Shown: positions 5,725 to 11,079 of the stretch, piece after piece | How the letters are laid out: every line of letters begins with the position of its first letter | Position numbering within the stretch: position 1 is the stretch's first letter | NCBI GenBank assembly: GCA_030153785.1 | Contig: JASKLF010000002.1 | Location: 118,683-182,682 of the forward strand | Source: a bacterium | GTDB taxonomy: Bacteria; Synergistota; GBS-1 | Reading direction: 5' to 3' | Length of the DNA stretch: 64,000 nt | Notes under the pieces: generated by a model | Told to the model about the DNA's origin: nothing | Databases searched by the model: none | Seen by the model: only the letters and a program-made list of their open reading frames with translations | Program-made: the position numbers and the translations under genes

Positions 5725-5790
5725 ATCAAAGACATACTTTTTCAGTTTTATCCCAAAGATATTTTTTCCTCCCCTCAGAAAGCTAACGGT

Positions 5791-6286: not shown

Positions 6287-6320
6287 ATTATATTATAGCA
6301 TGCCAATCATCTCAAGTAAA
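6287..6320 (-). promoter_or_regulatory. Putative internal promoter for cheW-HD-GYP
   Basis: On the minus strand, TGCTATAAT (6300-6292) overlaps the kinase-helicase stop codon. A second TATAAT at 6292-6287 has TTGAGA 17 bp upstream. Confidence 0.5.
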
Positions 6321-8905
6321 AAACGAGAAGGCTCTACCCATCTATTTTCTACTTTCTTCGGATAAGAAAGATAGACTAACTCTGTGGCTCTTGTTAAAGC
6401 AACAAAGAGAAGCCTTCTTTCTTCTTCCAGCTCCTCCACCCTTGCTAAACTCGAGAGACTTGGAACATTTCCATCGTAAAGACCTGTTATAAAAACGGCA
6501 TCAAACTCCAAGCCCTTCGCAGAATGGAAAGTTAGAAGATTAAGCATATCCCCTTTTCTACCAACTCCCATCTCCTCCATAAGCGATACATGATTTAGAA
6601 AATCCCTTAGATCCGCTTCTCCGAAGGAAGATGCAAGTTTTAGAAGCTCAAGAAAACCATCTTTATAAGCTCTCCAATTTTTACCCCTCTTCTTAAAAAC
6701 ATTTGCTATCTCTAAAGGTATCCTTATTATCTCCTCCACAGTGAGACTAAGGCCTTCACAAAGGAGTTCTTTCAAAAACCCGATAAGCTTTTCAGCCTTA
6801 TCTCTGTTAGCAAACTTCCCCTCCTCAAGGCAAAGCCCATCTTGTGAAACCCTAAACACCTTCTTTTTTGAACCGAGAATCCAAGAAAAGAACTCGCTTA
6901 TAGAAGAGAAATCTCGCTCCAGAATTCCTCTAAGATACTCCAGCGTCTTTCTAACTTCCTCTCTCTCATAAAATCCCGAACCACCTATAATTCTATAAGG
7001 CAACCCAGCCTTCGCCAAAGATTCCTCAAATGCTCTTGACTGATGATTAAATCTATAAAGAATTCCTATCGAAGAAAGCTTCTTATGGCGAGCAAGTTCT
7101 TTAATGGACTGAACAACAAATCTCGCTTCGTCTACTTCATTTTTAGCTATATAAAGTTCGACCTTACCTTCCCCTTTTAGACTTACAATGTTAGACAAAT
7201 CAACGCCCGATTTAACCATCAAAGAGGCAGCAAGACCCAACACCCTCTTAGGTAACCTAAAGCTATGGGTAAGCTCATACCTTTTAAGGCTTAACTCCTT
7301 TTCGGCTCTCTCTATTATGTCTGGCATCGCTCCTCTCCATCTATATATCGATTGAACGCTATCTCCTGTCAGGAAAAGTTCCCCATCCTCAGAGCTAAGA
7401 AGTTTTACAAAGCGATACTGAGCCTCATTCAAATCCTGAAGCTCGTCAACAAAGATGAACTTAAAACGACCAGAATAAACTTCTCTCAAATCATCTTCTT
7501 CTAAAAGTTTAACCCCATAATACAGGAGATCATCGAAATCCATAAGGTTCCTCTTCCTCTTTAACTCAGATAACCTATAATAAATCTCCGCCACCTTTTT
7601 ATGCCAAGAGAATCTGGCAGAAACCAAAGCCTGTTCAGGAGAAACGAGCCTAACTCTAAGCGCCGAAATTTCATTTAACACCCTGTTTATAAGAGAAGGT
7701 TCGAGCTTTTCAGAGACCTCTTTAAGAAGCGGTGTCGAATCGCTAATTAAAGAAAAGTCCTCTGAAAATCCTATTCTGTCTGCCTCTCTTCTTAGTATTT
7801 TATAGATAGCGCCATGAAAAGTCTCTATCCATATATCCTTAGTATCTATACCCAATAGATACGAAAGCCTCTCCCTTAAATCCGAAGCTGCCCTACGCGT
7901 AAAAGCTAATACCAAAAACAGGTAAGGGTTCTCTCCATTGCGGATTTTTCTATACAATCGATGAAGAAGCGTTGTAGTTTTACCCGTTCCCGCTCCTCCA
8001 AGGAGAAGTATCCTCTTTTCAGGGGAAAAAACAACCTCGTGTTGAGAAGGTGTGAGTTGAAGTTCATTAGAAAAAACAGAACTCCTACTTGTTTCTTTAA
8101 GCTCGATAGTCCTATCCAATTTAAGAGCCTTTAACAAGTCTTCCTTAAAAGAGGAAACATCGATATATCTATGCTCCGGCCTTTTAGACAAGGCTTTAGC
8201 TAATACATCACTCAACTCTTGAGGATAAGAGGGAAGATAGAATTTCAACGGCTTGGGATCAACCTCAAAAACCTTTCTTCTTATGTCCTCAAGCGTATCT
8301 CCATCAAAGGGGTTTTTGCCCGTAAGAGACTCGTAGATAACAACAGCAATAGAATAGACATCACTCGATGGAAGGTAAATTCCATTCCAACTTTCGGGAG
8401 GCATGTAAACCGGGGTGCCCGCAACTGTGGCTTTGATGCTGCCACCTTTCAAGAAGACTCCTAACCCAAAGTCTACAAGCTTAACGATACCTTCGTTAGA
8501 TATAAGAATGTTTTCGGGCTTGATATCTCTATGAATTACACCCCTCGAATGCGCATATTGAAGGGCATCCAAAACTGGCAAAAATATCTGTGGAACATCC
8601 TCAAGCTTAATTCTCCCCTTTTCCAACAAATCTCGTAAAGATTTGCCCTCCACATACTCAATAACGAGGACCAATCTGCCATCTATTATGTCGAGATTAT
8701 AAAAGCGAGCTATGTTAGGGTGGTCTAACGAAGCCAAAATCTGAGCTTCACCCTTCAATATCTTAACGTCCTTCTCCTTCAGTTTTGAGACTTTTATAGC
8801 AAACTTCTTACCAATCAGAGTATCTTCTGCAAGGTACACATCTCCGAAAGCGCCGCCGCCAAGCCAGTTAATTATTTTATACTTACCAAGCTTTGTGATT
8901 AACAA
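6293..8905 (-). CDS. Fusion of a Hanks-type Ser/Thr protein kinase and a UvrD/PcrA-like SF1A helicase
   Basis: Kinase motifs: GGGAFGDV, FAIK, HRDIKPEN, DFG, GTPVYMPPE, SDVYS. Helicase motifs: LTPSQ, GGAGTGKT, LAFTRRAA, TFHG, DELQD, GDSVQSIYRWRGA, TFHSAKGLEF, EERRLLFVALTRA. TTG start after GGAGGA. Confidence 0.93.
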   Translation of the reverse strand: MLITKLGKYKIINWLGGGAFGDVYLAEDTLIGKKFAIKVSKLKEKDVKILKGEAQILASLDHPNIARFYNLDIIDGRLVLVIEYVEGKSLRDLLEKGRIKLEDVPQIFLPVLDALQYAHSRGVIHRDIKPENILISNEGIVKLVDFGLGVFLKGGSIKATVAGTPVYMPPESWNGIYLPSSDVYSIAVVIYESLTGKNPFDGDTLEDIRRKVFEVDPKPLKFYLPSYPQELSDVLAKALSKRPEHRYIDVSSFKEDLLKALKLDRTIELKETSRSSVFSNELQLTPSQHEVVFSPEKRILLLGGAGTGKTTTLLHRLYRKIRNGENPYLFLVLAFTRRAASDLRERLSYLLGIDTKDIWIETFHGAIYKILRREADRIGFSEDFSLISDSTPLLKEVSEKLEPSLINRVLNEISALRVRLVSPEQALVSARFSWHKKVAEIYYRLSELKRKRNLMDFDDLLYYGVKLLEEDDLREVYSGRFKFIFVDELQDLNEAQYRFVKLLSSEDGELFLTGDSVQSIYRWRGAMPDIIERAEKELSLKRYELTHSFRLPKRVLGLAASLMVKSGVDLSNIVSLKGEGKVELYIAKNEVDEARFVVQSIKELARHKKLSSIGILYRFNHQSRAFEESLAKAGLPYRIIGGSGFYEREEVRKTLEYLRGILERDFSSISEFFSWILGSKKKVFRVSQDGLCLEEGKFANRDKAEKLIGFLKELLCEGLSLTVEEIIRIPLEIANVFKKRGKNWRAYKDGFLELLKLASSFGEADLRDFLNHVSLMEEMGVGRKGDMLNLLTFHSAKGLEFDAVFITGLYDGNVPSLSSLARVEELEEERRLLFVALTRATELVYLSYPKKVENRWVEPSRFLLEMIGML

Positions 8906-8922
8906 CTAATGATGTCCTCCTC

Positions 8923-11079
8923 CTACTCCACAAAAATTTCTATTCTATCACCATCTTTTATAGGAGTTGTGAACCCTGCTTCTTCCCCATTAACTCTCAT
9001 CTTTACATATCCCTTTTTCCCTTTTAGCACTTCTTCTATAGGATAGTACTCAAACACATGAGATAGAATCGGATATTCGGAATAATTTTCCCTAATCTCT
9101 AATTTTGCTCCATCGTAAAGAAGGTCATCAAGAGAAGCCGAACGACCATCTAATGAGATATTAAAACCGCCCCATGTTATCTCAAGAAGCCTCTCATTCA
9201 CATATACCTTCATTTTCCTAAGCTCAACGTTAGGAAGCACATCTTTAACTCTATAAGAAACCTCTTTTAAATCGAAAAGGTCTATTCTATCGCCATCCTT
9301 AATTGGAGCATCTAATGAGGCCAAACTACCATTAACTAATATCCTGCCATCCCACAATGGCAGGACCTTTTCCTCCCCATTGATTAAAACCTTTATTTCA
9401 TAAGGAAAAGGAAGTGCTCCGACCCGCTTCAAAGCCTCTCTGACGGTTTTAACTTGAACAACTTCCACCTTGGCTCTATCATAAAGAGGAGCCTTAAGCG
9501 GAAGTTTCTTCCCATCAACGAAGACCTCGGGGAAAAACTCATGCATTTTACCATTTATAAACAACCGAATGGGAGAAAGCTCTCCCACCACATCTTTAAC
9601 GGAAGCAAAAGCTGCCTTTCCGGGACGGGCTCTTCTCACAGTTATTCTATCGCCGTGCTTTATTGGAAAATCTATATTAACTTCCTCTCCATTAACTGTT
9701 ATCTTTGCAGGTTCTCCCAGCTCTCCTCTTATAATCTTTATTTCGCCATTAACCTCAATAGTTAAGGCCATACCGGGACGAGGCCTAAGCTCCTCCTGAG
9801 TTATCCCCATTGGGATCAAGGCATCCAAAACCTTCAGCTCCCCAGTTAGAGAAACAAGGCGTATCATTTCATCATTTACCCACACGTCGATGAACTTGAA
9901 TCCCCCGCCCTTCTTTGCAACAAGGGCAATTCCTAAGGGGGTAACCATCTCCGGACCTTTTAATTTACCTGTGAGGTCTTCTACACCTTTAAGAAACTCC
10001 ACGCCTCTAACTCTAACCCTATTCCTCTCTATTCCCAGAAACTCAGACAATTTAACATCAAATAAGGGGACTTTACTACCACCACCAACGCATATCACCG
10101 CCTGTGGAGGAGAAGAATTAAGTTCGAGTATCTTCTCTGAAAGCAGTTTGGCATGTCTTTCAACCTCTGGTTCTATGACCTTTATAAGCTCCTCCCTCTC
10201 AATCCGATATACATTTCCCAATATATCCTCGAACTCCAGAACAGCGATATCCTCACTTAAAGATCTTTTCACTCTCTCGGCCACATTAAAATCAAGCAAA
10301 AACTTTTCACAAAGCCTTTCAGTTATCTCATCGCCAGCCACGGGAACCATACCATATGCAACCACGCTTCCTCCCTTAGTTATAGCTATATCCATAGTTC
10401 CCGCTCCAACATCTACCAAGGCCAAATTCAACATCCTCATATCAGGCGGAACTACAACCTCTATGGCAGCTATAGGTTCAAGAGTTATGCTAGAGAGCTT
10501 AAGCCCTGCTCTTCTTAAGACTGAAAGCATGCTGTCAAGAACCACTCTTGGCAAAAAAGTAGCAAGGACTTCAACACCCGCCTTCCTCCCTCTCTGTCCA
10601 ACAAGGTTTCTTATAATATCACCATCAAGGATGTATTTAACAACACTATAGCCAACACAATGAAATTCCTCGTCAGAATCAGATTCCTCTCTAAGCGTTT
10701 TAAGGGCATTCTGAAGAGCTTGAAGCTCCAATTCCCTCACAAGCTCCTCCTCTATATCTTCGGAAATATCGAGAGGGATTTCTGCAACTCCTCTCCTAGT
10801 TTTTAAAGCCCTACCAGCAAGAGCCACACTCACATCACTTAGCTTAGTTCCATATTCTCTTTCAAGATTCTCCTTTATTCTGGAAACCACCTTTGCAACT
10901 TGAGCAACATCATGAATTTGCCCATCTAACATAGAACGCGTTTTATGCTCTTCAAAAACTAAGTGTTTAACCCTAAGTAAATCTTCTTCATCCACCGGTT
11001 CAACTATAAGCCCAACCACATTTCTCGTACCTATGTCCAATGCAAAGATATCTTTCTCTTTGTTTCTGCCTCTCCCCAT
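8923..11079 (-). CDS. FtsA/PilM-like actin-fold ATPase with C-terminal beta-grasp (ThiS/MoaD-like) repeats
   Basis: ALDIGTRNV, LEPIAAI, LVDVGAGTMD, CVGGGSK; five C-terminal repeats of the type VNG-x8-IKDGDRI. Confidence 0.85.
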   Translation of the reverse strand: MGRGRNKEKDIFALDIGTRNVVGLIVEPVDEEDLLRVKHLVFEEHKTRSMLDGQIHDVAQVAKVVSRIKENLEREYGTKLSDVSVALAGRALKTRRGVAEIPLDISEDIEEELVRELELQALQNALKTLREESDSDEEFHCVGYSVVKYILDGDIIRNLVGQRGRKAGVEVLATFLPRVVLDSMLSVLRRAGLKLSSITLEPIAAIEVVVPPDMRMLNLALVDVGAGTMDIAITKGGSVVAYGMVPVAGDEITERLCEKFLLDFNVAERVKRSLSEDIAVLEFEDILGNVYRIEREELIKVIEPEVERHAKLLSEKILELNSSPPQAVICVGGGSKVPLFDVKLSEFLGIERNRVRVRGVEFLKGVEDLTGKLKGPEMVTPLGIALVAKKGGGFKFIDVWVNDEMIRLVSLTGELKVLDALIPMGITQEELRPRPGMALTIEVNGEIKIIRGELGEPAKITVNGEEVNIDFPIKHGDRITVRRARPGKAAFASVKDVVGELSPIRLFINGKMHEFFPEVFVDGKKLPLKAPLYDRAKVEVVQVKTVREALKRVGALPFPYEIKVLINGEEKVLPLWDGRILVNGSLASLDAPIKDGDRIDLFDLKEVSYRVKDVLPNVELRKMKVYVNERLLEITWGGFNISLDGRSASLDDLLYDGAKLEIRENYSEYPILSHVFEYYPIEEVLKGKKGYVKMRVNGEEAGFTTPIKDGDRIEIFVE

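Follow-up and report, generated by a model that had tools for sequence, protein, structure and literature searches.

Kinases recur in prokaryotic defence, Stk2 being one kinase-containing defence module. Cytoplasmic Hanks-type Ser/Thr kinases are likewise found in PD-T4-6, in the MAD6 component of MADS, in PglW of BREX and in the TerY-P triad, some of them with a nucleic-acid-binding domain attached, as described for TerY-P kinases in the account of the CoCoNuTs (PMC10542128). The motors of the PcrA/UvrD/Rep group belong to superfamily 1A (SF1A), whose monomers are translocases on single-stranded DNA (ssDNA), and in which the contact of the 2B subdomain and its GIG motif with duplex DNA is described as a regulatory, auto-inhibitory and dimerisation element (PMC11912403; PMC13365976). 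A UvrD-like protein of the Gabija system, GajB, works with a partner, has lost the GIG motif and, in the assays described for it, showed neither DNA binding nor unwinding (PMC10681800). Here we report that a 64,000-nucleotide stretch of a Synergistota genome (GTDB lineage GBS-1; assembly GCA_030153785.1, contig JASKLF010000002.1, positions 118,683 to 182,682; hereinafter the window) contains a gene that joins these two kinds of module, namely an N-terminal Hanks kinase and an SF1A motor, in one polypeptide. The fusion is real, is built from known parts and is, as an architecture, one that we did not find described in the open-access PMC and bioRxiv literature searched; it is inherited together with a separate gene coding for an ARPP-1 domain protein.

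The first-pass annotation, made from the DNA letters alone, had read the gene as one uninterrupted open reading frame (ORF) joining a complete Hanks kinase, with its named motifs, to an SF1A helicase that begins at LTPSQ and has motifs Q to VI intact, and each of these points holds (Table 1). The single ORF lies on the minus strand and starts with TTG, the plus-strand frame across the same interval being closed by many stops, and LTPSQ does begin at nucleotide 8056. Pfam recovers Pkinase (PF00069) at residues 9–247 (E 1e-51), UvrD-helicase at residues 284–537 (E 7e-59) and UvrD_C up to residue 850 (E 6e-44). All the Hanks hallmarks are present in the kinase: the Gly loop (GGGAFG), the VAIK lysine (K38), the αC glutamate (E53), HRD (125–127), DFG (145–147), an activation loop with T160 and G163-T164, an APE-like motif, the subdomain IX aspartate (D182) and the subdomain XI arginine (R246). 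Its nearest solved relatives are StkP and PknB. It shares the RD kinase fold and motifs with PknB, StkP and PrkC; unlike them, it is tethered to a DNA motor, is accompanied by no PP2C or FHA protein that we could find in its family, carries the family-specific residues W14, R41, R67-F68 and W173, and, as had been noted at the outset, lacks both a transmembrane stretch (highest 19-residue hydropathy 1.4) and a PASTA domain (none by Pfam). The motor has the four-subdomain 1A/1B/2A/2B fold and the ATP and ssDNA motifs of PcrA, UvrD, Rep and Mtb UvrD1 (1pjr, 2is6, 9dci), with PcrA (1pjr) and UvrD (2is6) as best Foldseek matches. AlphaFold2 models both domains well around a disordered linker (mean predicted local distance difference test score, pLDDT, 85), the packing of kinase against motor not being confidently placed (predicted template modelling score, pTM, 0.57). 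Scores against NCBIfam models fall far under their cut-offs, at 359 versus 911 bits for pcrA (TIGR01073) and 229 versus 450 bits for PknB (NF033483). The protein ends, as annotated, shortly after motif VI and without a Tudor tail (about 10 residues beyond SRF); this ending is, however, not distinctive, because the genome's own PcrA (636 residues) and the PcrAs of three relatives lack the tail too.

Misassembly or a chance fusion is ruled out by contigs from four studies that bridge the linker (those of runs X8 and X9 as partial pieces) together with relatives that have the same architecture. Runs X5 and X7, from two studies, hold the whole stretch in single contigs, which differ from the window by seven substitutions and one deletion outside the ORF. 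Elsewhere in the window, at position 5762 between cheW and an HD-domain gene, one base is absent in the contigs of three other runs.

A word-indexed protein search, in which 7,999 candidates were scored, recovered at least 96 proteins with both domains (query included; 814–909 residues), the others being 35–75% identical to the query, and at least 15 further kinase-UvrD proteins of about 960 residues and about 29% identity. Names of taxa and phyla rest on the source labels among the matches, which are Synergistetes (74% identical), WOR-3, Hydrothermota and Aminicenantia in the first group and Blastocatellia in the second; an exhaustive search of representatives added clusters and no new architecture near the top. 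A helicase tree of 120 rows places the fusion family in one clade (support 1.0), apart from and not nested among PcrA/UvrD, which also holds two rows devoid of a kinase: P0152, which is a fusion cut short, and P0179, which is either a fragment or a loss. The approximately 960-residue Blastocatellia/Acidobacteriota fusion (P0098–P0112, P0167), despite its identical domain order, arose separately according to the helicase tree as well as the kinase tree. The ESM Atlas, for its part, lists fusions of kinases to AAA_11/12 and to DinG-like helicases.

Within the window's phylum the fusion is present in 4 of 246 genomes (threshold 1e-175, three candidates scored per genome; copies cut by contig ends could be missed), and these are all four genomes of one family, comprising three genera. 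A second phylum (that of genome G041, whose identity as WOR-3-like we infer) has at least 49 full and at least 5 partial copies in 151 genomes, among the matches listed. A contig scan that picked up generic kinase words gave one full fusion among 77 loci. On rooting with PcrA, the four family sequences are placed within the WOR-3-like sequences, in a 24-row subclade with support 0.99, a topology which suggests that the fusion was transferred into this Synergistota family.

Both active sites are conserved throughout. Over the 96 rows of the first group (query included), K38 is kept in 94, E53 in 95 and HRD and DFG in all 96, as are K309, D487/E488, Q518, R550, R618 and R839 of the motor. What has changed in the motor is concentrated in 2B: when 75 non-redundant family members are compared with 69 PcrA/UvrD proteins, the ATP- and ssDNA-binding motifs are retained, the 2B residues conserved in PcrA are gone, and the GIG motif is found in 0/75 fusion proteins versus 53/69 PcrA/UvrD proteins, the genome's own PcrA retaining PSRGVG at this position. 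The 2B segment had been called shortened and divergent, and measurement bears this out, with an FYER-to-HxAKG span of 147 residues in the query and a median of 149 in the family (46 of 75 rows parsed) against 172 in PcrA/UvrD (63 rows parsed), that is, a 2B about 20 residues shorter. By tree length 2B is the fastest-evolving part (40.7) and the kinase the slowest (18.2); 15 family-specific conserved residues, among them those named above, lie in the kinase versus 7 in the motor. A Ser or Thr occupies the T160 position, three residues ahead of the activation-loop GT, in 69 of 74 sequences.

The second constant of the system is its partner. In 20 of 36 loci (35 fusions plus metagenome locus L178, some being near-duplicates and some short contigs) the fusion is abutted by a gene of about 300 codons, usually immediately upstream and often with a 4-nt overlap, whose product matches ARPP-1 (PF20208) over the Pfam cut-off. 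The sole ARPP study that we found in open-access PMC and bioRxiv, that of Iyer et al. (2022; PMC9503650), describes an invariant Cys and Gln, which our proteins share, and contexts with ARG, HIRAN, WYL and deacetylase domains; it proposes an SRAP-like cross-link to sugar, and we found no experimental function in that literature. 'UvrD' has no occurrence in the main text of that paper, whose supplements, with their ARPP neighbourhood tables, could list the present context. The clade to which the operonic copies belong (hereinafter ARPP-K) was split from other ARPPs with a profile of those copies (228 versus 221 bits) and is recovered as one clade in trees, with Shimodaira-Hasegawa-like approximate likelihood ratio test (SH-aLRT) values of 96 and 98 in quick IQ-TREE runs but only 0.44–0.82 in FastTree runs. 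In the WOR-3-like phylum ARPP-K is present in 53 of the 54 listed fusion genomes versus 1 of 97 others, counts that are taken among kin and are non-independent; in the exception, G179, the start of an ARPP gene lies at a contig end, and in the sole non-fusion carrier, G184, the contig breaks off 12 bp beyond ARPP. Adjacency of the two genes is seen in only 20 of these 53 genomes, and in the other 33 they are unlinked yet both kept. The pair occurs in two phyla, and in the Synergistota family it is split yet fixed, with an unlinked ARPP-K alongside the fusion in 4/4 genomes; the window's genome has one ARPP of this clade, on another contig (G000:C9:48753-49694; L250:8754-9695). That copy has a branched-chain amino-acid ABC operon on one side and a single-domain response regulator on the other, and an ABC gene is upstream of ARPP in all four family genomes.

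The fusion and ARPP trees are congruent (30/32 and 32/39 strong splits agree, the 30/32 being ARPP splits that recur in the fusion tree; patristic r 0.82; two conflicting pairs), an agreement that vertical descent also predicts. Thirteen more genomes of the window's phylum have distant ARPPs, of which the six that were placed all fall outside the ARPP-K clade. Invariant residues of ARPP comprise C102, E104, R107, R82 and R126, including a C-x4-R motif, and ARPP clades that lack a kinase partner keep these residues invariant as well. Its structure is predicted confidently (pTM 0.91); Foldseek gave no match for it at E<=0.001 and VIA scores rose no higher than Z 4.7, which is not proof of a new fold; the SRAP fold is not listed among its Foldseek or VIA matches. 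Rate covariation with the parts of the fusion proved no decisive guide to the domain that ARPP partners, raw r being 0.76–0.82 for all of them. Kinase-less ARPP clades were also seen in WOR-3-like and Synergistota-like genomes (L288-L306, L252, L359-L364), some of their members being long fusions of 500–680 residues, in one of which the N-terminal region weakly matches PADLOC PDC-M03B.

The four family genomes are 96–99% complete, and in each of them the fusion is the sole Pkinase (PF00069) match; PP2C, FHA and LexA were each found in 0/4. A separate PcrA, for which the first-pass annotation had advised looking, is encoded in every one (in the window's genome at G000:C8:28062-29972, L251), which rules out the fusion as a PcrA replacement.

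The near-obligate partner, the intact active sites, the stripped 2B, the housekeeping-like setting and the lack of a detectable canonical Ser/Thr network are matters of observation, and the reading of them that we prefer, tentatively and at a little less than an even chance, is that of a DNA-sensing kinase module encoded on the chromosome and paired with ARPP, whose motor would settle on exposed ssDNA or on damaged DNA and turn the kinase on. The fusion and ARPP likely constitute a self-contained chromosomal switch by which exposure of DNA, or damage to it, would be converted into phosphorylation signalling. The motor has retained its ssDNA and ATP residues and lost the duplex-contacting, auto-inhibitory GIG motif; going by UvrD-family biochemistry, it would translocate 3'-5' along ssDNA and act as a sensor, more than as a conventionally regulated helicase, with routine unwinding presumably left to the separate PcrA. 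Several motors gathered on the same ssDNA might then bring their RD-type kinases close enough to phosphorylate one another's activation loops, a proximity activation modelled on the dimer-activated PknB and on PKR. More speculatively, ARPP, with its invariant Cys/Gln/Arg site, would be the dedicated partner: it might mark a damaged sugar, or process one, on DNA later encountered by the motor, or it might be a substrate or eraser of the kinase, a role considered because searches of the family turned up neither PP2C nor FHA proteins. The ssDNA loading, the proximity activation and the role of ARPP are all inferred.

Several observations weigh against this reading. The motor could be a mere scaffold, because GajB, which also lacks GIG, showed no DNA binding or unwinding; the strand-separation hairpin of this Synergistota family lacks an aromatic residue that other members commonly have, and the substrate, be it DNA, RNA or a modified nucleotide, is itself conjectural. 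P0179 sits within the motor clade without a kinase, and two copies are frameshifted, in G170 (L347) and at metagenome locus L178, through assembly error or as pseudogenes. The kinship of the genomes behind the co-occurrence counts tells in the same direction. LexA is present in 32 of 54 fusion genomes versus 45 of 97 others in the WOR-3-like phylum, a lack of anticorrelation that disposes of the fusion as an SOS/LexA substitute; ARG, unlike in the published ARPP systems, shows no co-occurrence with the fusion (4/54 versus 9/97), and the family's own ARG is unlinked, leaving an ADP-ribose connection unsupported. Finally, an approximately unbiased (AU) test (p=0.145) does not reject a grouping of the family's ARPP with the ARPPs native to its phylum, and joint transfer of fusion and ARPP into the family is therefore favoured rather than shown.

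The first-pass annotation had proposed a nucleic-acid-sensing kinase or a phosphorylation-gated helicase acting in DNA-damage signalling or defence. The proposal fits the anatomy, and its defence option has been weakened. As a rival to the sensing module, defence would take the form of a toxin-antitoxin-like or abortive-infection system, in which the motor senses phage replication DNA, the kinase is the toxic effector and ARPP the antidote or trigger; we regard it as unlikely, though it survives best among the competitors. It would accommodate the near-obligate, often overlapping gene pair, the GIG loss shared with GajB, the patchy presence (54/151 genomes among the matches listed), the apparent cross-phylum transfer and the pace of ARPP, which across the family is 59/53/51% identical and hence evolves faster than guaA, rnr, mutS2 and PcrA (70–84%). 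The fusion itself, however, evolves at about the rate of PcrA (74/68/63% versus 75/74/70%) and similarly to MutS2, its position is fixed over three genera, and the pair outlasts separation. PADLOC, run as the annotation had suggested, does match GajB and PD-T4-6/MAD6 domains in the fusion, but these matches are generic and confined to single domains; compared with PD-T4-6, MADS, BREX and TerY-P, it is the kinase domain alone that matches, under NCBIfam cut-offs, and their partner genes are not adjacent. In a flanking set of 68 proteins (one per cluster, within two genes, 31 loci) PADLOC matched four, each explained by Pfam as a housekeeping domain, and the neighbours of the fusion are housekeeping genes, which differ outside the Synergistota family. 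Unlike Gabija, the system has a fused kinase, a housekeeping site, a longer 2B, a retained hairpin region and no GajA-type OLD-TOPRIM nuclease (PF20469 in 0/4 family genomes and in none of the 68 flanking proteins). Searches found no full-length match on plasmids or phages, and a viral-contig scan with one motif pattern only found none; with GC and GC3 equal to those of neighbouring genes, this also speaks against recent mobile acquisition. Antitoxins often leave orphan copies, and no clear orphan ARPP-K was found. Defence is thus weakened because of the housekeeping neighbours, the PcrA/MutS2-like rate, the stable synteny in 4/4 genomes, and the absence of a GajA-type nuclease and of any phage or plasmid copy.

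Less probable still is a phosphorylation-gated repair motor, whose kinase would act in cis or on ARPP and whose translocase would remove ARPP-DNA adducts or protein blocks, the output being repair. Degeneration of the regulatory 2B surface would call for some other control, the family yielded neither an FHA reader nor a PP2C network, and SRAP-like cross-linking has been proposed for ARPP (PMC9503650); ARPP rate covariation is also slightly, if weakly, highest for 1A/1B (partial r 0.31). Yet AlphaFold2 gives no confident kinase-motor contact, the family-specific residues cluster in the kinase and not in the motor, and the fold searches with ARPP leave the SRAP relationship without structural support.

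A writer-eraser pair, with ARPP as a new Cys-dependent phosphatase or phospho-lyase (C-x4-R plus Arg and Gln) reversing the kinase on few targets, is improbable. The one-to-one co-inheritance and the invariant residues would suit it, as would the scarcity of other erasers: PP2C is undetected in 40/54 fusion genomes as well as in the family, and no SpoIIE-type phosphatase was found in G000 or G003. PP2C is, however, as frequent in fusion-negative genomes (25/97 versus 14/54), so that the fusion does not exclude it, and calcineurin-like and low-molecular-weight phosphatases lay beyond this survey. Known Cys phosphatases use C-x5-R, unlike the C-x4-R of ARPP, and the ARPP residues are just as invariant in clades devoid of the kinase.

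Least probable is a motor acting on RNA, R-loops or stalled transcription/translation complexes with ARPP handling ribose ends, for which the local context after mutS2, pheST and infC and the proposed action of ARPP on ribose (PMC9503650) speak, and against which stand a gene context not conserved beyond the family, SF1A motifs of the DNA type and the lack of an RNA-polymerase-binding tail.

Table 1. Features of the kinase-motor fusion gene and its flanks, in window coordinates.
Feature	Position	Strand	Basis or remark
Kinase-SF1A (UvrD/PcrA-like) fusion gene, 870 residues	6293..8905	-	ORF, Pfam, contig cover
Ser/Thr kinase domain, residues 1-262	8120..8905	-	PF00069, conservation, likeness to solved kinases
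Flexible linker, residues 263-283	8057..8119	-	AlphaFold2 pLDDT <50 at residues 264-281
SF1A motor, residues 284-866	6308..8056	-	Motifs Q, I, Ia, Ib, II, III, IV, IVa, V and VI intact
2B subdomain, about residues 646-780	6566..6970	-	Shortened, fastest-evolving, without GIG; boundaries estimated
Predicted Shine-Dalgarno GGAGGAGG	8916..8923	-	Strong ribosome-binding site by sequence, 10 nt 5' of the TTG start
Candidate sigma-70-like promoter TTGAGA-17-TATAAT	6287..6315	-	11/12 consensus match only; overlaps 3' end of fusion

The fusion is the tail gene of an infC-pheST-zapBA-cvpA-mutS2-ftsA-like run, a position that the first-pass annotation had found odd; the position is real and identical in 4/4 family genomes, but it is lineage-specific and uninformative, and a functional meaning of the mutS2/ftsA-like/cheW surroundings is ruled out by neighbours that vary beyond this family. 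The promoter candidate suggests that cheW is expressed from its own promoter, in which case the fusion would be the last gene of the upstream run. No usable RNA run gave evidence of expression. Directly upstream, and kept in all four family genomes, is a gene (window 8923-11079, minus strand) coding for an FtsA/PilM-like actin-fold ATPase of 718 residues with several C-terminal ThiS/MoaD-like ubiquitin-fold repeats. In G002 (L100:10818-14464, minus strand) two genes of about 608 codons, one with HEAT repeats, intervene between it and the fusion, an insertion confined to one genus.

A larger claim is possible though doubtful: that of a third bacterial DNA-damage signalling route independent of LexA/RecA and of WYL regulators, with ARPP as covalent lesion marker and a motor-tethered kinase. 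Such a route would be the prokaryotic counterpart of checkpoints run by sensor kinases, sufficiently self-contained to pass from one phylum to another and to operate in cells without any other Hanks kinase, PP2C or FHA protein. At least two origins of this domain order, together with the existence of related kinase-helicase fusions, suggest that the design may be a general one. The one-to-one partnership makes ARPP-1, whose active site is a predicted one, cleanly accessible to tests, and the Synergistota family is a natural minimal case: with the fusion as its sole Pkinase match and no PP2C or FHA protein found, the substrates of the kinase and the means of reversal must be few and findable.

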